This document shows positions 9,901 to 38,052 of a stretch of DNA of 64,000 nt, in pieces. This DNA is from Clostridia bacterium (lineage in GTDB: Bacteria; Bacillota; Clostridia; RGIG6154). Each line of letters begins with the position of its first letter. Positions within the stretch are counted from its first letter, which is position 1. Location of the stretch: contig JAZROD010000060.1 in assembly GCA_045648505.1 (NCBI GenBank), forward strand, positions 45,904 through 109,903, read 5' to 3'. The notes beneath the pieces are model-generated. The model did no database searches, had not been told where the DNA came from, and saw nothing but the letters and a program-made list of their open reading frames with translations. Position numbers and translations under genes: made by a program.

Positions 9901-10950
9901 ATGACAAAAATGAACGCATATCTCATTCTTGAAAACGGTAAAGTTTTCAAAGGAAAATCCTTTGGATATGAAAAAGAAACTTCAGGTGAGCTTGTTTTTA
10001 CAACAGGTGCTGTAGGTTACATCGAAACCTTGACAGACCCTGCATTTAAAGGTCAGATTGTTGTGCAGGCTTTTCCTTTAATCGGTAACTACGGTATGAT
10101 TTCTGCAGATGCAGAAAGCGTTAAGGCACAGGTTGCAGGTTATGTTGTTCGTGACCTTTGCGATATGCCTTCAAACTTCCGTATGGAAACAACTCTTGAA
10201 GAATATCTTAAAGAGCAGGAAGTTATGGGTATTACCGACATAGATACAAGAGAGCTTACAAAAATCATCAGAGAAGAAGGTGTTATGAAAGCAAAAATCC
10301 TTCTTGAAGAACCAAAGAATGCTTCTTTCGATTTTGAAATTGAAGACAAGGTTTCTGATGTAAGCTGTGAAGAAGTTATTTCACTTGAAACAAATGATGC
10401 TGAAAAAACAGTTGCAGTGCTGGACCTTGGTATGCTTAAAAGTATGGCAACAACTCTTGCTAGCAAGGGTGTTAAAGTTGATATACTTCCATACAACACA
10501 AAAGCTGAAGACCTTTTGAAGTATGATGGTATCCTTCTTTCAAGCGGTCCTTCAGATCCTAAGTCAAACACAGAGGTTATTGAAACTGTTAAAGCGGTTA
10601 TGGGCAAAAAACCAATCTTTGGTATTGGTCTTGGACATCAGATTTTAGCCCTTGCCAACGGCGGAGATACAGAAAAGTTAAAATATGGTCACAGAGGTGC
10701 AAATCAGCCTGTTAGATATTTAGAAACAGGAAAATGCTTTATCACAAACCAGAATCACGGCTATGTTGTTAAAGAAAATACTGTTAAAGGCGGAAAAACA
10801 TCATTTGTGAATGTTAATGACAATACAGTAGAGGGCATTGAATACGAAAATAATGCATTTTCTGTTCAGTTCTATCCAAATGCTTGCGAAAGCCCTATGG
10901 ATACCTCCTACCTTTACGACAAATTTATTGAAATGATGGAGGGATTCTAA
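9901..10950 (+). CDS. carA: Carbamoyl-phosphate synthase small (glutaminase) subunit
   Basis: GATase-1 active-site region GIGLGHQIL. The stop overlaps the carB start (TAATG). Confidence 0.9.
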   Translation: MTKMNAYLILENGKVFKGKSFGYEKETSGELVFTTGAVGYIETLTDPAFKGQIVVQAFPLIGNYGMISADAESVKAQVAGYVVRDLCDMPSNFRMETTLEEYLKEQEVMGITDIDTRELTKIIREEGVMKAKILLEEPKNASFDFEIEDKVSDVSCEEVISLETNDAEKTVAVLDLGMLKSMATTLASKGVKVDILPYNTKAEDLLKYDGILLSSGPSDPKSNTEVIETVKAVMGKKPIFGIGLGHQILALANGGDTEKLKYGHRGANQPVRYLETGKCFITNQNHGYVVKENTVKGGKTSFVNVNDNTVEGIEYENNAFSVQFYPNACESPMDTSYLYDKFIEMMEGF

Positions 10951-13900
10951 TGCCACTTAATAAAGATATTAAAAAAGTTTTGGTTATCGGCTCAGGTCCT
11001 ATCGTTATCGGACAGGCTGCAGAATTTGACTATGCAGGTGCACAGGCTTGCCGTGTTTTAAGAGATGAAGGTCTTGACATTGTTCTTGTTAACTCAAACC
11101 CTGCCACAATTATGACAGATAAGAAAATGGCAGATGCTATTTATCTTGAGCCATTAACTGCAGAAACAGTTAAAAGAATTATAGAAAAAGAAAAGCCTGA
11201 CAGCATTTTGCCATCACTTGGCGGTCAGACAGGTCTTACAATTGCAATGCAGCTTTCAAAAGAAGGCTACCTTGATAAAATGGGTGTTAAGCTCCTTGGT
11301 ACTAACGAAGAAGCTATCATCAAAGCTGAAGACAGAGAGCTTTTCAAAGCAACAATGGATGCTATCAATCAGCCTTGTATTCCATCTGATATTGCAACAG
11401 ATGTTGAAAGATGTCTTGAAATTGCAGACGAAATCGGATACCCTGTTATCGTTCGTCCTGCTTTCACACTTGGTGGTGCAGGTGGCGGTGTTGCATATAA
11501 CAAAGAAGAATTAAGAACTATTGCTAGTAACGGTCTTCTTCTTTCACCTATCACTCAGGTATTGATTGAAAAATATATCTTTGGTTGGAAAGAAATCGAA
11601 TTTGAAGTTATCAGAGACAGCAAGGGTACTGCAATCACAGTTTGTAGTATGGAAAACGTTGACCCTGTAGGCGTTCACACAGGTGACTCTATCGTTGTTG
11701 CTCCTGCGGTTTCACTTTCAACAAGAGAATACAGTATGTTAAAGAGTGCGGCACTTAATATTATTTCTGCTCTTGAAATCGAAGGTGGATGTAACTGTCA
11801 GTTCGCACTTAACCCTGAAACCTTTGAATATGCAGTTATCGAGGTTAACCCACGAGTTTCCCGTTCATCTGCTTTAGCTTCAAAGGCAACAGGCTTCCCG
11901 ATTGCAAAGGTTTCTTCAAAAATTGCTCTTGGTTATACACTTGACGAAATCAGAAATGATGTTACCGGTATGACTTATGCTTGTTTTGAACCTGCAATTG
12001 ACTATATCGTTGTTAAAATGCCTAAATGGCCATTTGATAAATTTGCTTATGCAAAAAGAACTCTCGGCACACAGATGAAGGCAACCGGTGAAGTTATGTC
12101 TATCGGTCCTACATTTGAAATGGCTATTATGAAAGCTGTTCGTGGTGCAGAAATTAAGATTGACACATTAAATCTTCCTGCTTTCAAAGACCACGAAAAT
12201 ATTGAAGAACAGCTCCATCAGATGGATGACAGAAGACTCTTTGCTATTTTTGAAGCATTAAAGCAGGGCGTTTCAACTGAAAAAATTCACGAAATCACAA
12301 TGGTTGACGAATGGTTTGTTGAAAAGCTCAGAAATCTTGTGAACTTTGAAAAAGAAATAGTTAATAATCTTACAGATGAACTTTACCTTAAAGGTAAAAA
12401 GCTTGGATATACAGATGCGGCTTTAGAGAGAATTTCAGGCGAAAAGGTTAAAGAACATAAACCTTGCGTTTATAAAATGGTTGATACCTGCGCAGGTGAA
12501 TTCAAAGCCCAGACACCATATTTCTACAGCTCACACGACTATAACTGTGAAGCAAGAGAAAGCGCTTCTGAAAAGAAAAAGATTATTGTTCTTGGTTCAG
12601 GTCCTATCAGAATCGGTCAGGGTATTGAGTTTGACTATTCATCAGTACACTGCGTATGGACACTTAAAGAACTTGGATATGAAGTTATTATTATCAACAA
12701 CAACCCTGAAACAGTATCAACAGACTTTGATACTGCAGACAGACTTTATTTTGAGCCTTTAACACCTGAAGATGTTATGAATGTTATCGAAATTGAAAAG
12801 CCTGTTGGAGTTGTAGTTGCATTCGGCGGTCAGACTGCTATTAACTTAACAAAATTCTTATCACAGAATAACATTCCTATTCTTGGTACATCTGCAGAAG
12901 GTATCGACCTTGCTGAAGACAGAGAACAGTTTGATGCTCTTCTTGAAAAGTTTGATATCAAAAGACCAAAGGGTCTTACAGCTATGTCACTTGAAGATGC
13001 GCTTAAATGTGCAAACGAGCTTGGCTACCCTGTACTTTTAAGACCATCTTATGTTATCGGTGGTCAGAATATGACAATCGCTCACAACGATGAAGATGTT
13101 ACAAAGTACATGAATATCATCCTTGGTGGTAAAATTGAAAACGCAGTTTTAATCGACAGATATATGAAGGGTACAGAGCTTGAAGTTGACGTTATTTCAG
13201 ACGGTACAGACGTTTTAATTCCTGGTGTTATGCAGCACGTTGAAAGAGCAGGTATTCATAGTGGTGACTCTATCGCAGTTTACCCACCATACAGCCTTTC
13301 AGACAAGATGCTCAAGACTATTGTTGACAGTTCAACGACTCTTGCACTTTCACTTGGAACAAAAGGTCTTGTAAATATTCAGTACCTTATCTATGATGGT
13401 GAACTTTATGTTATCGAAGTTAACCCAAGAGCTTCAAGAACAATTCCTTACATCAGTAAGGTAACAGGAATTCCAATGGTTGATGTTGCATCAAAGGTTA
13501 TGCTTGGACAGAGCATTAAAGACCTTGGTTATGAACCTGGTCTTTACAAAACACCACCTTGTTTTGCAATTAAAGTTCCGGTATTCTCATTTGAAAAGCT
13601 TTCTGATATCAACTCAAAGCTTGGACCTGAAATGAAATCAACAGGTGAAGTTTTAGGTATCGGTAAAACATTCAATGAAGCTATGTTCAAAGGCTTAACA
13701 TCTGCAGGCTTAACTGTGCAGACTAAAGAACCAAAAGGTGTGTTCATCAGCGTTGACGAGCACGATTATAACGATGTTATCGGTCTTGCTAAAAAGTTTG
13801 ATGATTTACAGATTAAGATTTACTCAACAAAGGGTACTGCAGAAGAAATCGAAAGACTTGGCATTGATGTTACAACATTTGAAGATATTTCAGACCCTGC

Positions 13901-14972
13901 AATCCTTGATTTGATTGACAAGGAAGAAATTGAATATATCATCTATACAGGCGAAGCTAAAGACGATTCACTTGACCATTATATTGCCCTTCACAGAAAG
14001 GCGCTTCTTGCAGGCATTGTTTGTATGACATCTATTGACACAGCAAACGCTCTTGCAGATATTATTGCAAGCCGTTTCAACCAGTCAAACACAGAGCTTG
14101 TTGATATAAACAAGATGAGAACAAAGAGACAGACTTTAGAGTTTGCAAAAATGGCTTGTTCAGGTAACGACTTTATCTTCATTGATAACAGAAACGGTGA
14201 AATCACAAGCCCTGAATCACTTTGTATTCAGCTTTGTGACAGACACTACGGTGTTGGTGGTTATGGTATCATCCTTATTGAAAATTCAAGCGTTGCAGAT
14301 GCAAAAATGAGAATTTTCAACAGAGACGGTTCTGAAGGAAGAATGGCAGGTAACGCCATTATGTGCGTAGGTAAGTATCTCTACGATAACGGTATCGTTA
14401 ATAAGATTGATATTACTATCGAAACCGGTGCAGGTATTAAAGAACTTCACCTCCACCTTCGTGATGAAAAGGTTTCATCAGTAAGAGTTAATATGGGCAA
14501 GGTTTCTCTTGATGCGAAAGACCTTCCTGTAGAGCTTGGGAAGGATCAGGTTATAAACGAAAAAGCAAAAATCGGCAACGAAGAATACGAAATTACTTGC
14601 GTATCTGTAGGTAACCCACATTGCGTAGTATTTGATGATTATATCGGCAGACTTGACCTTAAGAAAATCGGACCTGTTTTTGAACACGCTCCTATTTTCC
14701 CTGACAGAGTTAACACAGAATTCGTAAGATTTGTTAATAAGAGAACTCTTAAAGTTCGTGTATGGGAAAGAGGTATCGGCGAAACAATGGCTTGTGGTAC
14801 AGGTGCTTGTGCATCAGTTGTTGCTGCAGTTCTTAAAGGCTATTGCAAACAAGACCGTGATATCCGTGTTAAATTAAAAGGCGGAGACCTTATTGTAAAT
14901 TATGCTGCAGATGGCACAGTTTACTTAACAGGTAATGCTGACCTTATATATGAAGGTAAACTTTCATATTGA
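10950..14972 (+). CDS. carB: Carbamoyl-phosphate synthase large subunit fused in-frame to a C-terminal diaminopimelate epimerase (DapF) domain
   Basis: Residues 1-~1055 are CarB, with two ATP-grasp halves and an MGS-like end. Residues from MRTKRQTLEFAKMACSGNDFIFID (ATG at 14115) to the end carry DapF signatures (GNDF, GNPHCVVF, ERGIGETMACGTGACA). No stop codon separates the two parts. Confidence 0.8.
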   Translation: MPLNKDIKKVLVIGSGPIVIGQAAEFDYAGAQACRVLRDEGLDIVLVNSNPATIMTDKKMADAIYLEPLTAETVKRIIEKEKPDSILPSLGGQTGLTIAMQLSKEGYLDKMGVKLLGTNEEAIIKAEDRELFKATMDAINQPCIPSDIATDVERCLEIADEIGYPVIVRPAFTLGGAGGGVAYNKEELRTIASNGLLLSPITQVLIEKYIFGWKEIEFEVIRDSKGTAITVCSMENVDPVGVHTGDSIVVAPAVSLSTREYSMLKSAALNIISALEIEGGCNCQFALNPETFEYAVIEVNPRVSRSSALASKATGFPIAKVSSKIALGYTLDEIRNDVTGMTYACFEPAIDYIVVKMPKWPFDKFAYAKRTLGTQMKATGEVMSIGPTFEMAIMKAVRGAEIKIDTLNLPAFKDHENIEEQLHQMDDRRLFAIFEALKQGVSTEKIHEITMVDEWFVEKLRNLVNFEKEIVNNLTDELYLKGKKLGYTDAALERISGEKVKEHKPCVYKMVDTCAGEFKAQTPYFYSSHDYNCEARESASEKKKIIVLGSGPIRIGQGIEFDYSSVHCVWTLKELGYEVIIINNNPETVSTDFDTADRLYFEPLTPEDVMNVIEIEKPVGVVVAFGGQTAINLTKFLSQNNIPILGTSAEGIDLAEDREQFDALLEKFDIKRPKGLTAMSLEDALKCANELGYPVLLRPSYVIGGQNMTIAHNDEDVTKYMNIILGGKIENAVLIDRYMKGTELEVDVISDGTDVLIPGVMQHVERAGIHSGDSIAVYPPYSLSDKMLKTIVDSSTTLALSLGTKGLVNIQYLIYDGELYVIEVNPRASRTIPYISKVTGIPMVDVASKVMLGQSIKDLGYEPGLYKTPPCFAIKVPVFSFEKLSDINSKLGPEMKSTGEVLGIGKTFNEAMFKGLTSAGLTVQTKEPKGVFISVDEHDYNDVIGLAKKFDDLQIKIYSTKGTAEEIERLGIDVTTFEDISDPAILDLIDKEEIEYIIYTGEAKDDSLDHYIALHRKALLAGIVCMTSIDTANALADIIASRFNQSNTELVDINKMRTKRQTLEFAKMACSGNDFIFIDNRNGEITSPESLCIQLCDRHYGVGGYGIILIENSSVADAKMRIFNRDGSEGRMAGNAIMCVGKYLYDNGIVNKIDITIETGAGIKELHLHLRDEKVSSVRVNMGKVSLDAKDLPVELGKDQVINEKAKIGNEEYEITCVSVGNPHCVVFDDYIGRLDLKKIGPVFEHAPIFPDRVNTEFVRFVNKRTLKVRVWERGIGETMACGTGACASVVAAVLKGYCKQDRDIRVKLKGGDLIVNYAADGTVYLTGNADLIYEGKLSY

Positions 14973-24270: not shown

Positions 24271-24873
24271 ATGAAGATGACAAAGACAGATTTATTTTTA
24301 AAATTAGCAAATCCAAATAAAGAGGGTATTAGTAGATGGGTCAGTGTGACAGAATTTGTAGGTGAATACGCTGAACTTAAATTTGGAAACGGAGCTTCTT
24401 GGGCAAGAAAGGAATCAACTCTTGCCAAAAAATACATAATAGAATTTGATAAAACCATTACTTCTGGTAATGGAATAGACCGCTTAAGACTAAACGGATT
24501 CAATGACGGGGATTATTCCCAACATATCCGAGCTGATATCAAGAAGACTGTCGGTGCTCAACGTTGTGTTGTGTTAGGTACTTCAAAGCCAGAGGTTGAC
24601 CACAAAAATGGAATGAAAAACGAAGATAGAGTTATGCGTAATGAAGACCAAAAATTATCTGATTTTCAACCATTAAGCAAAGCTGCTAATGATGCGAAAC
24701 GTCAGTATTGTAAAGAGTGCCGAAGAACAGGAATCAGATATGATGCTAAAAAATTAGGATACCCTATGTCTTATTATGCTGGAGGAACTAAACATAATAT
24801 GGAAGAGGATGCCTGTGTGGGTTGTTATTGGTACGACCCATTGGAGTTCAAAAAACATTTAAAGCAAAAATAA
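24271..24873 (+). CDS. Putative type II restriction endonuclease (HNH/beta-beta-alpha-Me-like with Cys4 zinc motif)
   Basis: The 200-aa protein carries EVDHKNG ... N ... CKEC ... CVGC. It is downstream of the C-protein gene and convergent with two DNA methyltransferases. Confidence 0.45.
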   Translation: MKMTKTDLFLKLANPNKEGISRWVSVTEFVGEYAELKFGNGASWARKESTLAKKYIIEFDKTITSGNGIDRLRLNGFNDGDYSQHIRADIKKTVGAQRCVVLGTSKPEVDHKNGMKNEDRVMRNEDQKLSDFQPLSKAANDAKRQYCKECRRTGIRYDAKKLGYPMSYYAGGTKHNMEEDACVGCYWYDPLEFKKHLKQK

Positions 24874-24895
24874 TGCAAAAGGTGAAGTAGTCGTT

Positions 24896-25681
24896 CTACT
24901 TCACCTTTTTAAATATAAATATGTATTCGTGGTCAAATAAATAGAAATCACTTGCTAATGCCCTATACCGCCATATTGCTTCTTGATTTAATTTTCCTTT
25001 TGTTCTATCAAAATTTTTAACAAGAATCGCTTTCATCATAAAGCCTCTTTCAAGAAAAAGATTCATACAATGAAAGCCCAATGGAACGATTTGACTGTTG
25101 GCATATTTGTCTCCCATAACAACAGCACAATATCTGTTTTTTTCCAAATATTGAGTTGTATTATCAATAACCTGTCCGAACGAATTTAAAAATCCTTCCA
25201 ATGATTCTTCATTAGAGAGGTCTTCTGTATTTTCTGAAAATTTAATTATATCCCAATAAGGAGGATGCATAATAGCAAACTGATATTTTTTAATCCCGTA
25301 TTTTCCTAACAATTCAGACATATTAATACTTTTGCTATTACCGACAACAACATTAGTTGAACATTCAGAGTTTTTCTCAAGCATCATCCTCTCGTACGCT
25401 TCCTTCGCCACATTTGGTTGTAATTCAATACCAATAGAATTACGTCCCATTCGTTGTGCTTCAATAAGGGAAGTGCCACTCCCCATAAAAGGGTCAAGAA
25501 TCCAATCACCCTTTTTTGTATATCTTTTATAAAGTTGACGCGGAACTTGAGGAATGAAGTTTCCGTGATAGTTTGCATTGTGAACCCCTGAATTTTCTCG
25601 TTTGAACAACCACAAAGATGTAGTTAAAATGTCGGTGTATTCACGCCACTTTTTAGGGTCTAAATCATTATACCAAGCCAT
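24896..25681 (-). CDS. DNA methyltransferase (N6-adenine or N4-cytosine, amino-MTase)
   Basis: Motif I DPFMGSGTS and motif IV HPPYW. Start taken at MAWYND with an AAGGAG RBS; the ATG lies 1 nt after the stop of the C5-MTase gene. Confidence 0.8.
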   Translation of the reverse strand: MAWYNDLDPKKWREYTDILTTSLWLFKRENSGVHNANYHGNFIPQVPRQLYKRYTKKGDWILDPFMGSGTSLIEAQRMGRNSIGIELQPNVAKEAYERMMLEKNSECSTNVVVGNSKSINMSELLGKYGIKKYQFAIMHPPYWDIIKFSENTEDLSNEESLEGFLNSFGQVIDNTTQYLEKNRYCAVVMGDKYANSQIVPLGFHCMNLFLERGFMMKAILVKNFDRTKGKLNQEAIWRYRALASDFYLFDHEYIFIFKKVK

Positions 25682-25682
25682 T

Positions 25683-26957
25683 TCATTCTCCTTGTTGATC
25701 GTCATCAAGATTCTTGAGACTCTTCATAACAGCCACACCTATTGCTTTTCCTAAAAGACAAGGAACCGCATTACCTATTTGAACTAATTGCCATTTTTTT
25801 GTTCCCTGAAAAATAAAATCATCGGGGAATGATTGCAGGGCAGCAAGTTCTCTCGGAGTAAGTACTCTTGGAAGTTTAGGATGAATATTTACACCGCCAT
25901 GATTTTCCTTTACCGTACAAGATGGCTTATCCCAAGGAGATTTTTTCCAAGCATCAGAATAATTTCCATATAGACTTTGACCTTCGGGTAAAGCTTTAAT
26001 TTGTTCAATCATTTTATCTGAGTGTCTTGTGAATATATGGTTGATTTGCTTGTTTTCGGGGATGGACATAAAACGCTTAATCCCTTCGCCTAAGGTAACA
26101 TAATTATCAGATGAAAATAATGCTTTAGGATGATAGTTTGTCAAGCCATGTTTATTTCCTATGAAAATAACTCTTTTTCTAATCTGCGGAACACCATAAT
26201 CTGCACTATTAAGAACAGTTACATTAATATCGTAGCCAGCTTCTTTATAATCGCTTATAATTTTTGCCTCAACCTTACCATCAAGCATTGAACGCAATCC
26301 TTCGACATTTTCCATTACAACAAAATCCGGTTGAACTTTTTTCACTATCTCAAGCATTTCCAAATACAAACTGTTTCTTGGGTCTGTAACAACTCTATGT
26401 CCAGCCATACTGAAACCTTGACAAGGGAATCCTCCGACTATTAAATGGATGTGCTTGTCCTTTATAGAAGCGTAAAGTTTTTCCTTAACGCTTTCTTCTC
26501 TTATGTCTCTTGTTTCTACATTTTCATCAAAACCTTTTTTTTCAACGAAATTGTGCTTATATGTAGATACAGCTTCAGGCATAATTTCCACACTACCAAC
26601 AGGAGTAAACCCAGCCATTGTAAGACCACAGCTAAGACCACCTGCACCAGCAAATAAGTCTATGAAATTATAACCATTTCTATATTCTTTATTTGACCAT
26701 CCATCAAAAACCCATTTATCCGAGATGTCTATCCACTTCACTTCATCACATTGTTCATCTACAATGGTTTCATTGAATATATTATCCTTTTCTGGGTCGA
26801 GATCTGATATTAGCCATTTGTCGTAGGCTTCTTTAGTAATACGATACCTATTACCAACTTTATCTGCTTTTAATTTCCCGGCAGCAATATGTCTACGGAT
26901 GGTTTTTTGACTTTGGTTAGACATTTCAGACACTTCCGCTATTGAATAAAACTGCAT
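25683..26957 (-). CDS. DNA (cytosine-5)-methyltransferase with N-terminal HTH domain
   Basis: Motif I FIDLFAGAGGLSCG, motif IV GGFPCQGFS, ENV motif. The N-terminal ~60 aa are MerR/excisionase-like HTH. Confidence 0.9.
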   Translation of the reverse strand: MQFYSIAEVSEMSNQSQKTIRRHIAAGKLKADKVGNRYRITKEAYDKWLISDLDPEKDNIFNETIVDEQCDEVKWIDISDKWVFDGWSNKEYRNGYNFIDLFAGAGGLSCGLTMAGFTPVGSVEIMPEAVSTYKHNFVEKKGFDENVETRDIREESVKEKLYASIKDKHIHLIVGGFPCQGFSMAGHRVVTDPRNSLYLEMLEIVKKVQPDFVVMENVEGLRSMLDGKVEAKIISDYKEAGYDINVTVLNSADYGVPQIRKRVIFIGNKHGLTNYHPKALFSSDNYVTLGEGIKRFMSIPENKQINHIFTRHSDKMIEQIKALPEGQSLYGNYSDAWKKSPWDKPSCTVKENHGGVNIHPKLPRVLTPRELAALQSFPDDFIFQGTKKWQLVQIGNAVPCLLGKAIGVAVMKSLKNLDDDQQGE

Positions 26958-27235
26958 ATAAATCCTCCTAATTGGTCATTGTGTCCATTATACATGTTTT
27001 TTGTCCAATTGTCAAGTACTTGGCTATGCAGAATATATAAATTAAACGAATACCATAAAATAAACTTTTACCCCATAAATTAAACGATTTCAATTTATAA
27101 AGGCATAATTTTTAAACAATTAACATTTTGATAAGCATTTTAAAAGTCTACAAAACATAAGATTCCTCGAAAACCGCATCGTTACTGCGTTTTTAAGAAA
27201 TAAAAAAAACAAACTATTCTATCAAAATAGTCTGT

Positions 27236-27263
27236 CTTTTTTGGTGCAGGTGGTGGGAAACGA
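27236..27263. repeat. attL: partial direct copy of the tRNA-Leu 3' end
   Basis: cttttttggtgcaggtggtgggaaacga matches 33694-33720 (cctttttggtgcaggtggtgggaatcga) with 1-2 mismatches. Confidence 0.8.
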
Positions 27264-27356
27264 TAGGCTTTAAACCCTTTATTTAAAGGTTTTTTGAAAT
27301 TTTACTGTTGCCAATATGTTGCCTATGAAATAATTTTAAACGATTTCAAGTTGATT

Positions 27357-28529
27357 TTATACTGCTATTTCTGGGTATGGGTGACCGATTGTAAGACCTT
27401 CATTTTGAAGTATAGCATCAATCTTTGATATGTTGTCCTCGATATAGTCCTTTGTAGCATAGAAATATGTGTTCATTGTGATACTTATATCTGTGTGTCC
27501 CATTATCTCTTGAAGGACTTTAGGCGGCATACCTGCCTCTGCACATCTTGTACCGAATGTGTGACGGAGAGAGTGCAGGTCGATTTTTCCGTCTGTGATT
27601 GTTTCATCAAGTATGTTATATTTCTTTAGTGTTCTTCTGAACTGTGCATTTACTTGTGATGTAGTAACCATTTTGTCATTATGAGTAAAAATAAGACCTT
27701 GCTTTTTATCTCTTATGCAGTCCTGGAGCAGTTCTCTAACTGCATCTGTCATTGTTAGTGTTCTTATACCTGCTTTTGTTTTTGTGGTATCACTTAGGAG
27801 AGCCTCTCCCTTTTGTCCTCTTGATATGGTTCTTTTAATTGTTATGCGGTTAAAATTAAAGTTTACATCTTCAACAAACAATGCGTTTATCTCTCCCATG
27901 CGGAAACCAAGAGCAAGAGAAAGGAGCATCTGTCTTGAATAGTTTATATCTTCGTTTTTTAAAACCTCTATGAGTTTTTTCTGTTCGTCTTTGGTTAATG
28001 CTCTTACTTTTGCCGTTTCTTTCTTTGAGTGAGGTTTTTTAATATACTGCATAGGATTGTCTGTTATTATTTTTCTGTGTGTTGCCTCTTTAAAGGTTTT
28101 ATTTAAAAGCTCAAAGAATTTATTGATAACTGATTGTGAATAATGCAGATTGTTGTTTAAAAAGTTTTTCAGCTGTGTTTCGTGTGCCTCTTGCAGAGGT
28201 GTGTTATAAATCGGTGCTAATATTTTGAGTGTTTCCAAGTGCCGATAATATGACGGCTCTTTTATCTCGTTCTGATTAAGCTTATCATCAAGCATCTGTT
28301 TCGCAAGGCTGTATATGGTTATACCGCTTTTGTCAATAAATGTACCGGTGTAGATTTGAAATTCAACAGCTTTTAACTTTGCCTTTACATCAGCTTTTGT
28401 GCTACCGTACACAGTTTTTCTTTTTCTTCTGCCTTTTTCATCAAAGCCGACAGTTATTTGACCTACATATAAGCTTCTCTTTTCGTCAAAATAAATAGCT
28501 CCGTCTCCTTTTGACCGTCTTTTAGCCAT
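27357..28529 (-). CDS. int: Tyrosine-type site-specific integrase
   Basis: C-terminal catalytic region HSLRHTFGTRCAEAG ... GHTDISITMNTYFY (R..H-x-x-R..H..Y). It lies just inside attL. Confidence 0.9.
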   Translation of the reverse strand: MAKRRSKGDGAIYFDEKRSLYVGQITVGFDEKGRRKRKTVYGSTKADVKAKLKAVEFQIYTGTFIDKSGITIYSLAKQMLDDKLNQNEIKEPSYYRHLETLKILAPIYNTPLQEAHETQLKNFLNNNLHYSQSVINKFFELLNKTFKEATHRKIITDNPMQYIKKPHSKKETAKVRALTKDEQKKLIEVLKNEDINYSRQMLLSLALGFRMGEINALFVEDVNFNFNRITIKRTISRGQKGEALLSDTTKTKAGIRTLTMTDAVRELLQDCIRDKKQGLIFTHNDKMVTTSQVNAQFRRTLKKYNILDETITDGKIDLHSLRHTFGTRCAEAGMPPKVLQEIMGHTDISITMNTYFYATKDYIEDNISKIDAILQNEGLTIGHPYPEIAV

Positions 28530-28712
28530 AAAAAATACACTCCTTTGTAATTTTATAAATTGACATTAAGAGTGCAATATGATATACTTTTCTTGCTGTA
28601 GAAGAGTATATTTTATATATGCACTCTATGCTGAACTGTCCTTATTGCCGTAAGGGCAGTTCTTTTTTTATTCTCTTCTCCGCTTCCTAAAGAAACATAA
28701 GAAGCGGTAATG

Positions 28713-29042
28713 TTATAAAATAGCTTTTATATTATCCCTTAATTGCGGAAAGTCTGATGTTACTGTAAGATAGACATCTTGCATGTGCAGTGTTTGGTAC
28801 TTATGCGCCGCAATATCTCTAAACCCTGCTATGTTTCGCCAAGGAATGTTTTTATGTTCTGTTCGCAGTTCATCAGAAAGAGCCTTTACAAGCTCACCTA
28901 TGTTTATTACTGTCATACAGATTGCTCGTTTTAATATTTCGTCTTTGTTAAACTCTTCAAAGGTTTTTGTGTTTATCATATCAAGCGCAATTTCTGTTTC
29001 GCTTATAATCTTTTTCAGTATTGTCATATCTCTATGCTGCAT
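28713..29042 (-). CDS. hepT: HepT-like nucleotidyltransferase-substrate-binding toxin (DUF86)
   Basis: R-x4-H-x-Y motif (RDIAAHKY). Overlaps the mntA stop by 11 nt. Confidence 0.75.
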   Translation of the reverse strand: MQHRDMTILKKIISETEIALDMINTKTFEEFNKDEILKRAICMTVINIGELVKALSDELRTEHKNIPWRNIAGFRDIAAHKYQTLHMQDVYLTVTSDFPQLRDNIKAIL

Positions 29043-29319
29043 AAATTTCCACCACCTTTTCAGGTTTTATCAATGAATTTTCAGGAAGCGGAGAATGTAT
29101 AACATCAACATCAACTCCTAGCAATTCTTCAATTCTGTTTTTAATCTCGGCAAGTATAAAGAGAGATACTGCCGTTGTGCTAAATTCAATCAATAAGTCA
29201 ACATCACTTTCAGGTGTGTTTCTTTCTTCTGCATAAGATCCGAAAAGCATTATGCGTGTTATCGGATATTCACAAGCAACTTTTTGTGTGGCTGTTATAA
29301 TCTGTTGTAGTGTAAGCAT
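29032..29319 (-). CDS. mntA: MntA-like minimal nucleotidyltransferase antitoxin
   Basis: GS-x9-13-DxD motif (LFGSYAEERNTPESDVDLLIEF). Confidence 0.75.
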   Translation of the reverse strand: MLTLQQIITATQKVACEYPITRIMLFGSYAEERNTPESDVDLLIEFSTTAVSLFILAEIKNRIEELLGVDVDVIHSPLPENSLIKPEKVVEIYAA

Positions 29320-29399
29320 TATATCAACTCCTATATTTTTATTTTATCCGCTCCGTTTTGGTTTATGTCGGTGATGCAGTTCTGCATCAGCAGGAGCGG

Positions 29400-29759
29400 T
29401 TAATTATTTTGTTCTTTTCTCCTTAATAGTTCGTCTATATGTCCTATCGCATTAAACCAACCTGAAGAAAGAACAAAAATAACATTTGTGAAATCGATTA
29501 TAATACCAAAAACTGAACGATATTGAGGAAAATATTTTATTGACCATACGATATTAAAGCCATAAAGAAAGAAACCTATAAGTGTAAGTAAAGCAATAAA
29601 GAATATTCTTGCTCTTGGTGCGTAGTGCTTATTTATAAATAGCATACCAGGTATATAATAACAAAAGCTTACAACAACAGGAAGATGAACATTGTTATAA
29701 CAAAACAACAATGCTATAAGACCTAAAACAAAAGCAAAAAAAGATTTGATTGTACCCAT
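29400..29759 (-). CDS. Small integral membrane protein (3-4 TM), function unknown
   Basis: 119-aa hydrophobic ORF between the cI-like repressor gene and the TA pair. No recognisable motif. Confidence 0.4.
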   Translation of the reverse strand: MGTIKSFFAFVLGLIALLFCYNNVHLPVVVSFCYYIPGMLFINKHYAPRARIFFIALLTLIGFFLYGFNIVWSIKYFPQYRSVFGIIIDFTNVIFVLSSGWFNAIGHIDELLRRKEQNN

Positions 29760-29799
29760 AATAACACTCTCCTTTATGTGTTTTTATATTTTTAAAGTC

Positions 29800-30246
29800 T
29801 TATGTTGTCAATTCTTCTATTGGCGGTTGAGAGCTTTCAGATAATTCTCCACCGTATGCAGCAACTTGATAATAATCTTCTCTTGGCATTTCAAATGTTT
29901 TCTTTGTATATTTATCATTTATAAGCAAATCATCAATATATGTGTTTGCTCTCTTTTTCCCGAGTTCGTTAAGCTTATGATATTTGTCTAATAAAAGATT
30001 GTCGTTTGTGTCACCTTTTACACTTTTATTATTTTCAGGATTGTCAGTAAGACCTATAAGAAAATCTCCTGTTGTGTCTAATATGGTGCAAAGTTGTTTA
30101 ATTATTTTAAGATTGGGATAATTTTTGCCTGTTTCATACATAGCTATTGTAGATTTTGATAAATTCATAATTTGTGCTAATTCGCCTTGAGTTAGCTTTT
30201 TTTCTTTTCTTAAATGACTTATTCTTTCGCCAACTGTTAAAAACAT
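29800..30246 (-). CDS. cI-like XRE-family repressor
   Basis: N-terminal HTH_XRE (LTQGELAQIMNLSKSTIAMYETGKNYP). Divergent from a cro-like gene. Confidence 0.75.
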   Translation of the reverse strand: MFLTVGERISHLRKEKKLTQGELAQIMNLSKSTIAMYETGKNYPNLKIIKQLCTILDTTGDFLIGLTDNPENNKSVKGDTNDNLLLDKYHKLNELGKKRANTYIDDLLINDKYTKKTFEMPREDYYQVAAYGGELSESSQPPIEELTT

Positions 30247-30278
30247 ATCAAAGCCCCCTTTATGTTATTTCTGTAATC

Positions 30279-30372
30279 AAAATATCACAATTTATGTAGT
30301 TTGTCAATATAAAAATCACAAAATATGATTTTATTTTCCGAAAAGTATTGACAAAATCACAAATAATGATTA
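30279..30372. promoter_or_regulatory. Divergent promoter/operator region with three ATCACA-n5-TGATT palindromic operators
   Basis: aaaatcacaaaatatgatttt (30312-30332), aaaatcacaaataatgatt (30353-30371) and a degenerate aatatcacaatttatg (30279-30296). TTGACA-17-TATTAT overlaps O2 and points toward the cro-like gene. Confidence 0.55.
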
Positions 30373-30420
30373 TTATGTATCTGTAAAGTTCACGAATGAT
30401 GAACAGGAAGGGGAATTTTT

Positions 30421-30609
30421 ATGTTAAAGAATTTAGAGGCAGAACAGGCACGTAAGAAAAAAACAGATGCAGATATTGCTGAAGTTTTAGGAATTGCAAG
30501 GGAAACATACAACAAAAAGAAGAAAAACTTACATTTTACCTTCTTAGAGATAAAAAGCTTATGTCTATACTTTGATGCAACATTTGAGTATCTCTTTGCA
30601 ACCGAATGA
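30421..30609 (+). CDS. Cro-like XRE-family HTH protein
   Basis: 62 aa, HTH_XRE (KTDADIAEVLGIARETYNKKK). Confidence 0.6.
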   Translation: MLKNLEAEQARKKKTDADIAEVLGIARETYNKKKKNLHFTFLEIKSLCLYFDATFEYLFATE

Positions 30610-30664
30610 ATTAAACCACAGGAGCGGACATCTGCTCCGCAATAAGAAAGGAGAACAAACTGCA

Positions 30665-30808
30665 ATGGAAAACAAAGAGATTTTAAGAATTACTAAAAAG
30701 GTCAAAAAGGACCTTAAGGGCAAAATTGCTTTATTATGTGCCTTAGCATCTGCAGGAGCAGTTATCGGCACAATGCTTTTTAGTAAGGTGGTGAAAGCAG
30801 ATGCATAA
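30665..30808 (+). CDS. 47-aa single-TM peptide (possible)
   Basis: MENKEILRITKK..IALLCALASAGAVIGTMLF. Weak RBS, and the listed ORF has longer in-frame upstream starts. Confidence 0.25.
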   Translation: MENKEILRITKKVKKDLKGKIALLCALASAGAVIGTMLFSKVVKADA

Positions 30809-31394
30809 AGAAATATTGAAAAATTCTATAACAAAGTTACCTAAAGGGACTGATAGCGAACAAGTGAAAAGGCTTGACAATATTTTGTGTACTATATATG
30901 GGACTTTGGAAGAAAGAATAACAGACGAAAAAACACTTGAATATCTTGACAATTTAAGAGATTGTATAGATTACATAAAAGTTGAAAGCTTTGACAATGG
31001 TGTTTGTTATGGATTGGAACTTGCAAACGCATATAAAACAATAATATACGAGCCAAGACGAGCTTTTGAAGATATGAGAGCCTCTTTAGAACCATTCGAC
31101 AAAAAGTATGATGATATAGATAAAACATATACAGAGATTTTAGCAAATAAGCACAATAATATTTATTCTGATGATGCTATAGACACATTACATCATGAGT
31201 ATATGTTCAGAGAGGACTACACAGAGGCAGTCGTCAGCATAGATAAAACAAAAGAAGCGGAAGATGCAAAAGAGCGATTTTATAAAGATAAGCTGAAAGA
31301 TGAAGAAATACTAACAGCAATTAACACTTGTTATCTTGATGAAGGCTTCAGACAAGGTTTCAAGTGTGCAATGAATATAAAGAACAAACGATAA
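30801..31394 (+). CDS. Hypothetical protein (197 aa, acidic, no recognisable domain)
   Basis: Clean ORF that overlaps the upstream peptide ORF stop. Function not inferable from sequence. Confidence 0.5.
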   Translation: MHKEILKNSITKLPKGTDSEQVKRLDNILCTIYGTLEERITDEKTLEYLDNLRDCIDYIKVESFDNGVCYGLELANAYKTIIYEPRRAFEDMRASLEPFDKKYDDIDKTYTEILANKHNNIYSDDAIDTLHHEYMFREDYTEAVVSIDKTKEAEDAKERFYKDKLKDEEILTAINTCYLDEGFRQGFKCAMNIKNKR

Positions 31395-31419
31395 AAACAA
31401 CCGAAAGGAGCGAAATCTG

Positions 31420-31524
31420 ATGTATTATGTTATTTGTCAGGACTGCGGAGCAAGGCTTGACACAGGGGAAAAATGCGACTGCAAACAACAAGCCAAGAGT
31501 AAGAAAGGCGGTAAAGCAAAATGA
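31420..31524 (+). CDS. 34-aa Cys-rich zinc-ribbon-like mini-protein (possible)
   Basis: MYYVICQDCGARLDTGEKCDCKQQAKSKKGGKAK, with an AAAGGAG RBS 8 nt upstream. It is too short for the ORF track. A 49-aa TM peptide ORF (31521-31670) follows with an ATGA overlap. Confidence 0.3.
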   Translation: MYYVICQDCGARLDTGEKCDCKQQAKSKKGGKAK

Positions 31525-31659
31525 ATAATATTATAATTACCGTTTTGATTTGGTGTTCTGTGTGCTTATTCTTTGGCATTTTGGGAGTGGTAGAGAAAAT
31601 TCCGTACATAGACAAGCTTTTAAGCGAAGCAGTAAAAAGAATTGAAAGGAGCGGAAAAT

Positions 31660-31878
31660 ATGAGTGGTGAAAAGATTGTAGCCTTTGGAAATGAAGAAAC
31701 AGTTAATACCGATTTAATATTTTATGATACAAAAGATGTAGCAAGAATATTGAGGTGTTCTATACAGTCTGCAAGAGACATTATGCACAGGAAAGACTTT
31801 CCGCTTATCCAGGTCGCAAAAAATATGAGAGTTTCAAAAAGTGCTTTTGAAAAATGGGCCATGGAAAGAAGAAGTTAA
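31660..31878 (+). CDS. Excisionase/AlpA-like HTH DNA-binding protein
   Basis: 72 aa, DTKDVARILRCSIQSARDIMHRKDFPLIQVAKNMRVSKSAFEKW resembles the HTH_17/Xis family. RBS aaaggagcgg. Confidence 0.5.
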   Translation: MSGEKIVAFGNEETVNTDLIFYDTKDVARILRCSIQSARDIMHRKDFPLIQVAKNMRVSKSAFEKWAMERRS

Positions 31879-32015
31879 AAAGAAGCGGAGAGGATCTGCT
31901 CTTATGAAGAATAAAGAAAAATATCAAACCTAAAATTATAACTGCCTACGGGCAGTTTTTAGGCTTGTATGATAATCATAAATAATCAACCGTATCACAG
32001 AGAAGGGGTGAGCGG

Positions 32016-32282
32016 TTGTTCAAGAAAAGACGAGGTATAAAGATACCATACAACAAACAAGGACTAATTTATTTTATTTGTCTTGATTATAAAAACCAAC
32101 CTCAGAAGATACAGGACAAAATAAAAGGTCTCTGTCACACCGTAGGCGGAGAGGAATACGAAAAGGCTTTGTTTGAGTTTGTAACAACAGAGGCAGGAGC
32201 AATTAAAATCAGCTTAAAGCATTATACAAGTGAAACAAGCTTGTATCAGATGCGTAAAAAGTTTTATGAGCTGTGGAAGTGA
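32016..32282 (+). CDS. Hypothetical protein (88 aa)
   Basis: ORF located between the xis-like and rep genes. No recognisable motifs. Confidence 0.35.
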   Translation: MFKKRRGIKIPYNKQGLIYFICLDYKNQPQKIQDKIKGLCHTVGGEEYEKALFEFVTTEAGAIKISLKHYTSETSLYQMRKKFYELWK

Positions 32283-32299
32283 AAGGAATATAAGAACAA

Positions 32300-33052
32300 A
32301 TGCGAAAAATCAGCCGAGAAATTATATACAAGGCAGGTCAATATATGGACTTACAAAATTACCCTGTTTATAAAAAACAAGGGCAAAGAGCAAAAAGAGG
32401 TAAACCAACATCAGAAGTGCAGCAGAAAATAAACGAAAGAAATTCAAAAATGAAATTATCAAGACTTCTACACGCAAATTTCACAAGTGATGATATAGAG
32501 ATACATTTGACATATTCAGAAGATTGCTTACCTGCAGATGCAAGAGAGGCTTTGAAAGATGTTCAAAACTACATAAGACGACTAAGGAAACATTACAAGG
32601 GAAAAGAGCTTAAATATATTACTGTAACAGAAACAGGAACGGAAAACGGAAGATTTCACCATCACATCACTATAAGTGGCGGTGTTTCAAGAGATATTCT
32701 CGAGGAAGAATGGACAAAAGGCTATGCAAACAGTAAAAGACTACAATTTACCGATAAAGGTTTACAGGGCCTTGCAAACTATATGACAAAACAGAAACTT
32801 GCTTTTAGACGTTGGAACTGCTCAAAGAATTTAGTTAAGCCAACAGAAAAGGTGCGCCATAACACAATATCAAATAAAAAACTCAAAGAAATGTATATAT
32901 ACCAGGAGCAGAACGGAGAAAAGCTCTTGATTGAAAAATACGCAGACTTTTTAGCAAAACTTTATCCCGGCTACAAAATAACAGAATTAAAGATTGTTGA
33001 AAATGATGTCAACAAAGGTTATTATATGCACATATTCGGTAAAAGAATATAA
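32300..33052 (+). CDS. rep: Putative HUH-motif replication initiator (rolling-circle Rep-like)
   Basis: FHHHITISGG (H-U-H motif) and a downstream GLANYMTKQ candidate catalytic Tyr. It is followed by a structured putative origin region. Confidence 0.5.
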   Translation: MRKISREIIYKAGQYMDLQNYPVYKKQGQRAKRGKPTSEVQQKINERNSKMKLSRLLHANFTSDDIEIHLTYSEDCLPADAREALKDVQNYIRRLRKHYKGKELKYITVTETGTENGRFHHHITISGGVSRDILEEEWTKGYANSKRLQFTDKGLQGLANYMTKQKLAFRRWNCSKNLVKPTEKVRHNTISNKKLKEMYIYQEQNGEKLLIEKYADFLAKLYPGYKITELKIVENDVNKGYYMHIFGKRI

Positions 33053-33070
33053 GTTTGCAAAAGTTCGCAA

Positions 33071-33107
33071 CACGCAATAAATGCGCACGTGTGCGTGTGC
33101 ATGTGCG
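33071..33107. repeat. 37-nt perfectly alternating purine-pyrimidine GC-rich tract (atgcgcacgtgtgcgtgtgcatgtgcgtgtgcgcgtg)
   Basis: Direct reading of the sequence. It lies immediately 3' of rep in a ~35% GC background and is flanked by inverted gcaa-rich repeats (33040-33065 and 33245-33270). Confidence 0.7.
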
Positions 33108-33693
33108 TGTGCGCGTGAGAAAAAAGCGAATAAATAAAGAGTTTACAATATTTCTTTTGTATGGTTTACAAAACCAAACAAAAAACAAGCAAATGCGAAG
33201 TTGATTAAAAAGAGGCTTGAAACATAAATGTTTTAAGTGCTTTTTGCGTTGTTGAAATTCGCAAACGATTGGGAATTTGTGTATAAATACTTGCAATTAT
33301 TTTAATATAGTGTTATAATGTAAGTGCAGGATAGCACTTACGGTTGGGTGCTATCTCCCCCTTTGGTGTTTTCCTGAAATATACAAAGGGGGTTTGTTCT
33401 TTAAATTTAGTTTTTTCATAAAAGCATACCTCTGTTACCAAGTCTGAATGGCTTGGTTTTTTCTTTATAAGCTCTGCATCAGGAAGAGCAGACAAAAGAA
33501 GCGGTAATATTTCCGCTTCCTATGAATTTTATGTTGCCAATATGTTGCCTATTGTTGCCTATTTGTTGCCTATGAAACGATTTTAAACAAACTCAAACTG
33601 ATTTTAAAAGAAAACATAAAAGTCTTGAAAGTGCCTATTTATAAGGGCTTGCAGACTTTTAAGTAAAAAAATAAAGACGGTTGTAAAAGCCGC

Positions 33694-33720
33694 CTTTTTG
33701 GTGCAGGTGGTGGGAATCGA
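33694..33720. repeat. attR core (overlaps the tRNA-Leu 3' end)
   Basis: Direct repeat partner of 27236-27263. Confidence 0.8.
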
Positions 33721-33785
33721 ACCCACACGGTATCACTACCACAGGATTTTGAGTCCAGCGCGTCTGCCAGTTCCACCACACCTGC
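33699..33785 (-). tRNA. tRNA-Leu (anticodon CAA), type II with long variable arm and encoded CCA
   Basis: The reverse complement GCAGGTGTGGTGGAACTGGCAGACGCGCTGGACTCAAAATCCTGTGGTAGTGATACCGTGTGGGTTCGATTCCCACCACCTGCACCA folds with a 7-bp acceptor stem, a GGTTCGATTCC T-arm and a CUCAAAA anticodon loop. There is one T-T mismatch in the anticodon stem. Confidence 0.8.
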
Positions 33786-37704: not shown

Positions 37705-38052
37705 GGGGGTGTAAAGGTTTCGACGGGGATAAAGAAGTAAGTTAAGCAAGTGGTTGTGCGGAGCAACCTTAAAATCCGTATTATAAATTTAAACGCTAAC
37801 AATAATTTAGCTTACGCTGCCTAATTAAGGCGGCCGTCTGACTTGTATTACCGTGGTATAAGATTCAGGCGTCGACTACACGGTGAACGTGCGTCTGCAA
37901 AGCTTTGAGCAGACCATGAATAATGAAGCTACCAAACAAAGTGCTTTGTTTGCGGAACACTTTATGAGGGAAATCTTAACCACAAACTAAACTTGTAGAA
38001 AGACTTATGGACATATTTTCGGACAGGAGTTCGATTCTCCTCATCTCCACCA
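37705..38052 (+). ncRNA. ssrA: tmRNA (ssrA), ~348 nt, tag peptide reading ...ANNNLAYAA*
   Basis: 5' GGGGGUGUAAAGGUUUCGACGGGGAU, 3' tRNA-like end GGACAGGAGUUCGAUUCUCCUCAUCUCCACCA. Tag ORF gct aac aat aat tta gct tac gct gcc taa. A TATAAT box lies at 37694-37699. Confidence 0.85.

Follow-up and report, generated by a model that had tools for sequence, protein, structure and literature searches.

The 64,000-nt stretch of Clostridia bacterium DNA analysed here, referred to as the window, holds at 27238–33720 a compact set of genes that most probably constitutes a mobile element integrated into the 3′ end of a tRNA-Leu(CAA) gene. The tRNA gene, the sole one called by ARAGORN in the window, is intact, lies on the minus strand at 33699–33785 (Rfam tRNA, 51.3 bits) and represents the integration target. 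A repeat finder returned the att repeat TTTTTGGTGCAGGTGGTGGGAA[A/T]CGA (family D6) at 27238–27263, the attL core, and at 33695–33720, the attR core; the copies are 6,457 bp apart and agree over 26 nt at 96 % identity, with 22 nt exact and a single mismatch, A for T at 27260. The 19-nt centre of the repeat occurs exactly twice in the 64 kb, compared to 0.01 copies expected. The right copy consists of the terminal 22 nt of the tRNA, encoded CCA included, and four bases downstream, whereby ARAGORN and Rfam agree with a preliminary description of this DNA that had seen in it the 3′ end of an intact minus-strand tRNA-Leu. The left copy belongs to no second tRNA and divergence begins right past the 26 nt, so the larger duplicated tRNA that the same description had named as the alternative source of the repeat is not present at the locus. 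Its repeat at the tRNA 3′ end is real, but the coordinates it gave were 1–2 nt too wide, the leading "c" being off register. At the repeat edge, the T-run counts six T in the left copy and five T in the right one.

Insertion has rebuilt the 3′ end of the tRNA gene with element sequence and pushed the original terminator to the far side. This displaced native terminator, a hairpin ACAGACTATT/AATAGTTTGT with a T-run read from the sequence, is found at 27201–27237 on the minus strand, on the chromosomal flank of attL and not within the element, and a hairpin and T-run supplied by the element (33660–33698, likewise read from the sequence) now trail the tRNA. As the empty tRNA-Leu loci of relatives (contigs L002 and L016/L017) feature a hairpin and T-run at the same place after the CCA, we conclude that the insertion parted the tRNA from its own terminator. 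The attL mismatch sits at the tRNA-body end of the repeat, and the attL of the sibling element on contig L008 carries two more substitutions in the same part, which places strand exchange in the TTTTTGGTGCAGGTG part of the core. From attL and attR, the attP junction of an excised form is predicted to read ...GACGGTTGTAAAAGCCGCC-TTTTTGGTGCAGGTGGTGGGAA-ACGATAGGCTTTAAACCC..., and the attB junction of an empty site in the window ...AATAGTCTGTC-TTTTTTGGTGCAGGTGGTGGGAA-TCGAACCCACACGG....

Both ends of the element are equipped for site-specific recombination. A tyrosine integrase (Int) of 390 aa is encoded at 27357–28529 on the minus strand (phrog_1, 4e-62) and displays the catalytic set of HSLRH, an upstream R in RMGE and a C-terminal H...Y, invariant in an alignment of 18 members. 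The hidden Markov model searches of Int and Rep that had been suggested as a check gave PF00589 with 93 bits and PF23343 with 46.6 bits, respectively. Just beyond the int stop codon, the Int-side arm (27303–27359) carries two TGTTGCCWAT repeats, at 27306 and 27317, while the Rep-side arm (33529–33606) carries four of them at 33532–33573; each repeat group is followed by the same 35-nt module, and 27303–27359 matches 33550–33606 at 82 % (repeat family D1). All six TGTTGCCWAT copies of the window are located at these two element ends, compared to 0.45 copies expected. On the excised circle both arms would flank the core in the manner of arm-type sites, and we therefore presume, by analogy, that they are arm-type binding sites of the integrase. 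The integrase is likely assisted by an excisionase-type HTH_17 protein (31642–31878, plus strand; PF12728, 31.2 bits), a probable recombination directionality factor. In 31 of 35 phage contigs, its homologues (about 50 % identity) are encoded directly upstream of integrases homologous to Int, which supports its role as the cognate excisionase.

The strongest evidence for mobility was obtained from close relatives of the element. Int has 825 relatives at E <= 1e-30, five of which are 98 % identical. One relative, L007 from the Logan assembly of SRR17418337, is a 6,477-nt contig whose two ends repeat the same 30 nt exactly, CCTATCGTTTCCCACCACCTGCACCAAAAA, and thus a closed circle of 6,447 bp; we take Logan assemblies to use k = 31, in which case a 30-nt end overlap is expected for a circular path. 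Its backbone is 98 % (Int), 97 % (Rep), 99 % (membrane protein) and 74 % (the 197-aa protein orf197) identical to that of the window, and its junction runs from the Rep-side arm over a core with the attL-type base to the Int-side arm, which is the attP predicted from the window. The core of attP is flanked by the same GGCAACA repeats in L007 and in the more distant cousins L014 and L015. The circular junction that the preliminary description had proposed to look for in read data was hence found in a sibling, but not for this exact copy.

Further siblings occupy the chromosome of a different species. In L008–L013, representing five independent assemblies including the NCBI metagenome-assembled genome (MAG) GCA_017622395.1, the same backbone carries a DUF4160/DUF2442 cargo and the tRNA-Leu(CAA) 3′ end is joined to the Rep-side arm; identity to the window is 79 % in the chromosomal flanks and 86–95 % in the element. 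Other contigs of this sister species, recognised by its AlaX-like protein (P0248), show AlaX, tRNA-Leu, a gene for a 144-aa protein and the ATP synthase operon without any element. Comparing an occupied with an empty contig, positions 1–4909 of L008 correspond to 9746–4838 of L016 and positions 11267–13610 of L008 to 4863–2520 of L016, with flanks 98 % identical, and what the two matches have in common is precisely the 26-nt core. This amounts to a clean polymorphism, occupied versus empty, of a sibling whose integrase is 98 % identical. The suggested BLASTn search for empty attB sites therefore delivered a precise empty site for the sister-species copy (L016 versus L008), but none for the species of the window.

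The same contigs revealed that the tRNA-Leu(CAA) of the sister species resides in a cassette of about 200 nt, comprising promoter, tRNA and terminator, that is found in either orientation between the AlaX-like and 144-aa genes (for example L016 4803–4975 versus L017 4612–4812, and also L018–L024). It is co-directional with AlaX in eight empty contigs and convergent in one empty contig and in all occupied ones (L008–L013). The cassette is 91–95 % alike between the two orientation types, compared to 98 % for the flanks, which suggests that it may have travelled with, or been inverted by, the element. Contig L002, from a related MAG with an AlaX-like protein at 86 %, was considered as an additional empty site, as its tRNA-Leu is followed by a terminator, but an odd 200-nt duplication makes it unusable. 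The duplicated unit (L002 4341–4660) starts from within the tRNA-Leu 3′ end, i.e. the att core, and tandem copies of it run to the end of the contig; either an assembly loop or the remnant of an att duplication could account for this.

Based on the closed circle and the precise empty site, mobility of the family is shown on siblings, and the preliminary assignment as an integrative element is borne out by attP circle, empty site and profile searches of these relatives rather than by this exact copy. We are confident, short of certainty, that the 6,457-bp region of the window is an integrated, excision-competent and phage-derived "hitcher" that encodes only integration, regulation and self-replication in addition to a swappable two-gene toxin–antitoxin (TA) cargo, and it is probably an active member of an uncatalogued family.

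Several observations weigh against this picture. A tandem array would give the same contig as L007, so that its circular reading leans on the k = 31 taken for Logan assemblies. Neither an empty allele nor an attP was obtained for the copy of the window, whose species is represented by one genome in the searched collection; since the AlaX-like flank protein of the window has a single 100 % match, the next one being at 87 %, there is no second genome of this species to compare. Metagenome pattern scans for the predicted attB and for the Rep-side arm joined to the core gave 0 matches, a scan of genome contigs with the AlaX-like protein of the flank gave nothing but two short contigs from other species, and exact-protein look-ups of the AlaX-like and Rep proteins had nothing on record. 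The family is absent from IMG/VR, leaving encapsidation unsupported, and contigs bearing Int show no length peak at about 6.4 kb. The apparent size constancy of 6,383–6,457 bp over five elements was rejected as a sign of a packaging constraint, because L014 and L015 had been picked for contigs of about 6.4 kb and the comparison is biased. Finally, the origin and its nick site, the operon structure, the inducer and the helper are putative.

All genes and regions listed in the preliminary description, namely the integrase, a MntA/HepT pair, a membrane protein, a repressor switch, micro open reading frames (ORFs), a helix–turn–helix (HTH) protein, Rep and a structured region, are present between the att sites. 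Conserved among the siblings are int and the block upstream of it, the membrane protein, the ORFs of 47, 197, 34, 49 and 88 aa, the excisionase, rep and the non-coding block behind rep. The block upstream of int (28530–28712, plus strand) combines a promoter TTGACA-17-TATACT at 28560–28588 with a long hairpin and a terminator at 28633–28662 followed by a T-run. It is 95 % conserved in L007 and L008 and 87 % in L004, where it stands beside an integrase of another family. The promoter is near consensus and the terminator strong (28560–28670), on the strand opposite to all neighbouring genes, and judging from these signals the block may encode a small regulatory RNA.

Next to this block, alignment boundaries between siblings delimit a cargo slot of about 28717–29327, which contains exactly the HepT and MntA genes in the window, ParE with an antitoxin in L007 and DUF4160/DUF2442 in L008 and L015, so that three different two-gene modules occupy the slot across three siblings. 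The HepT-like toxin (28713–29042, minus strand) matches PF01934 with 72.6 bits and contains the Rx4HxY motif as RDIAAHKY; the MntA-like nucleotidyltransferase antitoxin (29032–29319, minus strand) matches PF01909 with 50 bits and PADLOC PDC-S09 with 1e-17 and contains the GSx(n)DxD motif. Both Pfam scores exceed the gathering cut-offs and the adjacent genes overlap by 11 nt; the presence of both motifs together with adjacent, overlapping genes is what is required of a type VII HepT/MntA system. As the NCBIfam equivalog scores of 30 and 43 bits remain below their 60-bit cut-offs, the pair is regarded as divergent members of the type VII toxin–antitoxins. The "defence cargo" proposed earlier does correspond to a TA pair, but defence is only one possibility, and the pair could just as well stabilise the element. 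A 20-nt repeat, ACAWAAGAAGCGGTAATRTT, is found at the edge of the cargo slot (28695–28714) and, 90 % alike, at 33492–33511 (family D13), where the second copy lies within a conserved hairpin beside the repeats of the Rep-side arm.

The gene following the cargo on the minus strand (29400–29759) encodes a conserved backbone membrane protein of 119 aa, whose hydropathy reveals three hydrophobic segments. It is 99 % identical to its counterpart in L007 and 82 % to that in L008, and no family match was obtained in Pfam, PHROGs or NCBIfam. It is followed by a cI-like HTH_3 repressor of 148 aa without peptidase domain (29800–30246, minus strand; PF01381, 47.8 bits; phrog_8), for which NCBIfam also reports an RstR-family match below cut-off. 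The adjoining switch region of 174 nt (30247–30420) harbours divergent sigma-70-like promoters and putative operators at 30312–30330 and 30354–30372 with a weaker one at 30282–30296; the two 19-nt near-palindromes AAATCACAAA(A/T)(T/A)ATGATT(T/A) overlap the divergent promoters at 30300–30376. On the other side, a small HTH protein of 62 aa (30421–30609, plus strand) is designated Cro-like on the basis of its position and orientation, its matches being weak (phrog_4583, 5e-4; PF13022, 0.0045) and including faint PHROGs similarity to the HTH of terS families (E of about 5e-4 to 2e-3 over 27 residues). The repressor is 50 % identical to that of L008 and different from that of L007, and other small HTH proteins stand in place of the Cro-like protein in both siblings. 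The cI/Cro region is thus swapped between siblings as in heteroimmune lambdoid phages.

The rightward genes continue with a 47-aa protein with one hydrophobic segment (30665–30808, plus strand), which has 47-aa counterparts in L007 and L008 and is 86–89 % conserved, and with orf197 (30801–31394, plus strand), which is 73–74 % identical in the same two siblings, has only six, remote relatives among 1.84 billion representatives and gave an unusable single-sequence AlphaFold model (predicted local distance difference test score, pLDDT, of 38.6). A mini-protein of 34 aa with a CxxC...CxC pattern (31420–31524, plus strand) has 34-aa counterparts at the same place in L007 and L008 as well as a related ORF and a DNA match in L004. 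The next gene (31521–31670, plus strand) encodes a 49-aa protein with an N-terminal hydrophobic segment that is 90–92 % identical in L007 and L008 and 61 % in L004. Past the excisionase gene, the 88-aa backbone protein orf88 (32016–32282, plus strand; 88–95 % identical in L007 and L008) has a 39 % identical homologue after rep in phage contig L005 and yielded no family or fold match. Assignment of orf88 as a sigma-r4-type or late-activator-like protein was considered, as L015 encodes a DUF1492/Sigma70_r4 protein at this place, and was discarded for lack of such a match and of any similarity to the L015 protein.

The replication module starts with a rolling-circle initiator of the HUH type, Rep, of 250 aa (32300–33052, plus strand; phrog_3584, 3e-64 over full length), in which an HHHIT motif at residue 120 and a candidate catalytic Tyr in GLANYMTKQ can be read from the sequence. 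Behind rep extend about 640 nt without conserved ORF that show 91 % mean identity among three siblings. Their first part, 33053–33330, is a structured block with a DNA fold z of −3.6 against shuffles and is presumed to contain the replication origin. Just past rep, a (GTGCRY)n run at 33083–33119 stands out as GC-rich in the otherwise 35 % GC element and is 12 nt shorter in L008. A small-RNA-like unit follows at 33291–33465 on the plus strand, featuring a promoter TTGCAA-17-TGnTATAAT, two internal hairpins and an intrinsic terminator (33437–33457) with T-run. Its −35 box, extended −10 box and terminator are conserved, while spacer and loops vary; covariation is weak, with double changes in 4 of 31 predicted pairs from three sequences only. 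Apart from the tRNA, Rfam gave matches to PyrR and nqrA-II far below the gathering scores.

Beyond the direct siblings, we found two cousins that share the integration apparatus. L015 (Int 73 %, Rep 47 %) is a closed circle of 6,393 bp broken at an arbitrary point, in which Int is followed by GGCAACA repeats, a 3′ end from a different tRNA (TCGATTCCCACCATCTCGACCA), again GGCAACA repeats, and Rep; besides its DUF4160/DUF2442 cargo it encodes an ImmA-like peptidase and a DUF1492/sigma-r4 regulator. L014 (Int 76 %) crosses its own attP with the same arm repeats and encodes an S24-type repressor. At L014 1–260, TAGTGCAGTA iterons lie beside genes for a DnaG-type zinc-ribbon primase and a DUF927 helicase, a replicon resembling that of Staphylococcus aureus pathogenicity islands (SaPIs) on the same integration chassis.

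Rep connects the element to temperate phages. It is 31–39 % identical to replication initiators of isolated temperate Firmicutes phages, i.e. PhiS63, phiSM101 and Terrisporobacter, Latilactobacillus and Butyrivibrio phages, with 35–37 % over full length for PhiS63 and phiSM101; it also matches phiSM101-like 38-kb episomes of C. perfringens and is weakly related to microvirus initiators. Among the more than 300 Rep relatives at E <= 1e-10, those at 48–55 % identity occur in phage contigs L005 and L006, where terminase, portal and capsid genes follow. L004 (Rep 85 %) is a mosaic that has rep, the gene for the 49-aa protein, a portion of cI and the block upstream of int in common with the window, and differs by another integrase, the absence of a TA cargo and further genes after rep. 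In PhiS63 the genes are ordered integrase, repressors, cro-like, ..., rep. Int relatives of 42–51 % identity, with an excisionase homologue alongside, are found in viral contigs of 35–66 kb. Due to the Rep relatives in tailed phages and the mosaic L004, we consider the replication and regulation modules to be of tailed-phage origin and to be exchanged with such phages.

The element as a whole is poorly represented in existing catalogues, as had been anticipated: with the whole element as BLASTN query, phage and plasmid collections yielded no match, tblastn of Int against the same collections gave none at 1e-30, and no close relative came up in IMG/VR, which was scanned with Int, with Rep and with two blocks of conserved DNA. 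The 7-kb "Bacteriophage sp." entry MT837378 (L001), whose Rep is 31 % identical, was set aside as a high-GC and unrelated entity.

A life cycle can be proposed from the arrangement of these modules. While the element is integrated, the cI-like repressor would silence the rightward operon. Co-expression with the repressor is probable for the membrane protein and MntA/HepT, as all of these genes lie on the same strand with gaps of 40 and 80 nt and no terminator-like site in between; they may either stabilise the element by addiction or act against phage. Upon derepression, the Cro-like protein, the HTH_17 excisionase and Rep would be made, Int and the excisionase would recombine attL with attR within TTTTTGGTGCAGGTG(GTGGGAA) to release the circle, and Rep would nick the origin in the conserved 640-nt non-coding block to start rolling-circle replication. 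Spread between cells would then need a helper, since no recognisable packaging, capsid, lysis, relaxosome-accessory, coupling or pore gene is found among the ORFs of the element in Pfam, PHROGs, NCBIfam or PADLOC; phage structural or lysis genes and conjugative genes are likewise absent elsewhere in the 64-kb window.

As to the nature of this helper, capture by a tailed phage that packages the element as concatemers, in the way of a minimalist satellite, is judged the likeliest route, albeit with well under even confidence, and conjugative mobilisation with Rep as relaxase is ranked next. Somewhat more tentatively still, the elements of about 6.4 kb may be the gut-Clostridia counterpart of marine minimalist satellites; rolling-circle replication would yield concatemers that fill the heads of temperate siphophages like PhiS63 and phiSM101, Rep and regulatory modules being traded between element and phage. 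Just as speculative is a family of tRNA-integrating satellites made up only of Int, the excisionase, a heteroimmune cI/Cro switch, an interchangeable HUH Rep or primase–helicase replicon and a swappable TA or defence slot.

The conjugative alternative would make the element an integrative and mobilizable element (IME), the excised form being nicked at an oriT in the non-coding block by the HUH Rep, here a non-canonical relaxase, and the single strand exported via the pore of a co-resident conjugative element, a route that has been proposed for streptococcal IMEs with PHA00330-type initiators. The group of initiators named PHA00330 stems from microvirus initiators, to which Rep is distantly related. 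Streptococcal IMEs do pair an integrase with such a phage-type initiator of rolling-circle replication (RCR; Rel_PHA00330, 21 elements), IME_SpnA45_tRNAleu even residing in tRNA-Leu (PMC5357655, PMC5704250), and RCR initiators can double as relaxases (PMC5704250). However, 19 of these 21 IMEs possess the coupling protein TcpA, which is found neither here nor in L007, L008 or L015, and conjugative genes are missing from the 64-kb window. Moreover, the closest Rep relatives stand beside packaging genes in tailed phages, regulation relies on a phage-type cI/Cro switch, and cousin L014 combines the same Int and arms with a primase–helicase replicon that is unable to act as a relaxase. We consequently regard mobilisation as an IME as unlikely.

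A somewhat poorer fit still is an integrative plasmid or addiction island without dedicated transfer, which would be inherited vertically, be kept by TA addiction and move by occasional generalised transduction or transformation. The recognisable functions, limited to integration, replication and TA modules, as well as the metagenomic circles, which fit plasmid-like maintenance, agree with such a lifestyle. On the other hand, near-identical backbones are shared by two species whose chromosomes differ by about 21 %, which argues for efficient transfer between lineages, and the tight repressor/Cro switch suggests an inducible rather than a constitutive episomal life.

It is highly improbable that the element is a decayed prophage, that is, an immobile remnant of an internal deletion reaching from rep to attR: the order int, cI, cro, ..., rep does equal the left part of PhiS63-type temperate phages, and L004–L006 continue with further phage genes after rep, but the same minimal architecture recurs in five elements (window, L007, L008, L015 and L014) with intact ORFs, differing cargo and immunity and two closed circles, the 640 nt after rep are 91 % conserved and non-coding instead of being a gene fragment, and the precise empty site indicates that the small form excises or inserts cleanly. 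A complete prophage of inovirus or microvirus type was also rejected, as neither a morphogenesis ATPase nor a major capsid protein is encoded, and the terminase, portal, capsid, tail and lysis genes of a complete temperate phage are absent between the att sites.

The surrounding chromosome shows additional features of interest. Directly left of attL, 24271–26957 encodes a restriction–modification cluster of the NlaIII/IceA type, consisting of an endonuclease of the ICEA family (PF05315, 236 bits), a methyltransferase of the N6/N4 type and a C5 methyltransferase whose N-terminus bears an excisionase-type HTH (TIGR01764), and the promoter region of the cluster (27037–27094) contains repeated ATAAATTAAACGA motifs. 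Further away, 10950–14972 is a single ORF of 1,340 aa that joins the domains of a carbamoyl-phosphate synthase large chain to a C-terminal diaminopimelate epimerase domain. A tmRNA (37705–38052) with SmpB is located 4 kb to the right of the element. The tmRNA of the sister species (L009/L012 8453–10257) has a Mor-family (Mu-like) regulator gene as its neighbour, a hint that this locus may be a second integration hot spot.

Hitcher elements without recognisable transfer genes are thought to form a large and under-counted part of bacterial mobilomes, and have so far been shown mainly in marine Proteobacteria and cultured pathogens. The window provides a fully delimited reference copy from uncultured Clostridia, with its att sites and arm repeats as well as its switch, replicon and cargo slot, for a sizeable and modular family that is invisible to phage, plasmid and viral-contig catalogues. 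Its attP and attB sequences can be used for PCR and read-mining assays of activity, and the cargo slot with HepT/MntA, ParE or DUF4160/DUF2442 is a natural place to seek new defence or addiction modules.

Among known systems, the preliminary description had seen a resemblance to phage-inducible chromosomal islands (PICIs) or integrative plasmids; the definition of a PICI does not fit. SatelliteFinder defines PICIs by an integrase and a regulator together with a primase-replicase and with terS and/or genes for capsid morphogenesis (PMC10085698). Integrase and regulation module (alpA/merR/stl-like) are represented by Int, the cI-like HTH_3 protein and HTH_17, but no primase or helicase domain and no terS or capsid-morphogenesis gene was matched by any ORF in Pfam, PHROGs or NCBIfam. 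As only the integrase and regulator are found, the element is not a PICI and would rank no higher than "type C" in SatelliteFinder. It does resemble PICIs and SaPIs in the integrase at one end, the divergent repressor/Cro-like switch, the excisionase-type HTH, a replication module and an accessory slot beside int, and cousin L014 has primase and DUF927 helicase with iterons, but its 6.5 kb compare to a median of 9.5 kb for PICIs, measured from int to the last core gene (PMC10085698). The PICMIs (minimalist chromosomal islands inducible by phage) of Vibrionaceae encode three core proteins for excision and replication, defence cargo and an AlpA regulator and integrate next to fis (PMC10803314), and for PICMIs and the marine VEIMEs (integrative mobile elements carried in virions) a rolling-circle, plasmid-like replication and packaging into virions as concatemers have been reported (PMC10803314, PMC9618062). 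With these the element has in common the very small size and the lack of capsid-remodelling and packaging genes, an analogy of content and not homology; unlike PICMIs, it targets tRNA-Leu(CAA) in uncultured Clostridia and uses a cI/Cro switch.

The streptococcal Rel_PHA00330 IMEs are likewise Firmicute elements of a few kb with an integrase and a phage-type HUH initiator, some of them in tRNA-Leu; their initiator has been proposed to also maintain the excised IME, and their transfer is itself only proposed (PMC5357655, PMC5704250). Most of them encode the TcpA coupling protein, whereas the element has no FtsK/TcpA-like match and unassigned ORFs of at most 197 aa. In actinomycetes, integrative and conjugative elements of the pSAM2 type (AICEs) combine a tRNA-integrating Int/Xis with a rolling-circle Rep that amplifies the excised circle and an FtsK-like Tra for transfer of double-stranded DNA; the element differs from them by the lack of such a Tra, by phylum and by Rep family. 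A further satellite type is RS1, which accompanies the CTX phage. Like RS1 and pDolos, an RCR plasmid satellite of an inovirus that has no integrase (bioRxiv 10.1101/2023.11.28.569023), the element is an HUH/RCR replicon without virion genes, and its cI-like repressor has the sub-threshold RstR match. Those two ride in helper particles, whereas neither an inovirus helper nor a morphogenesis ATPase is in evidence here and the closest Rep relatives are found in tailed phages. With PhiS63 and phiSM101 it shares the full-length similarity of Rep and the order int, repressor, cro-like, rep, but these are complete phages of 33–38 kb with structural and lysis genes and a different integrase. Taken together, the element is best described as belonging to the helper-dependent integrative elements, as a phage-derived, tRNA-targeting and rolling-circle-replicating mini-island with a TA slot.

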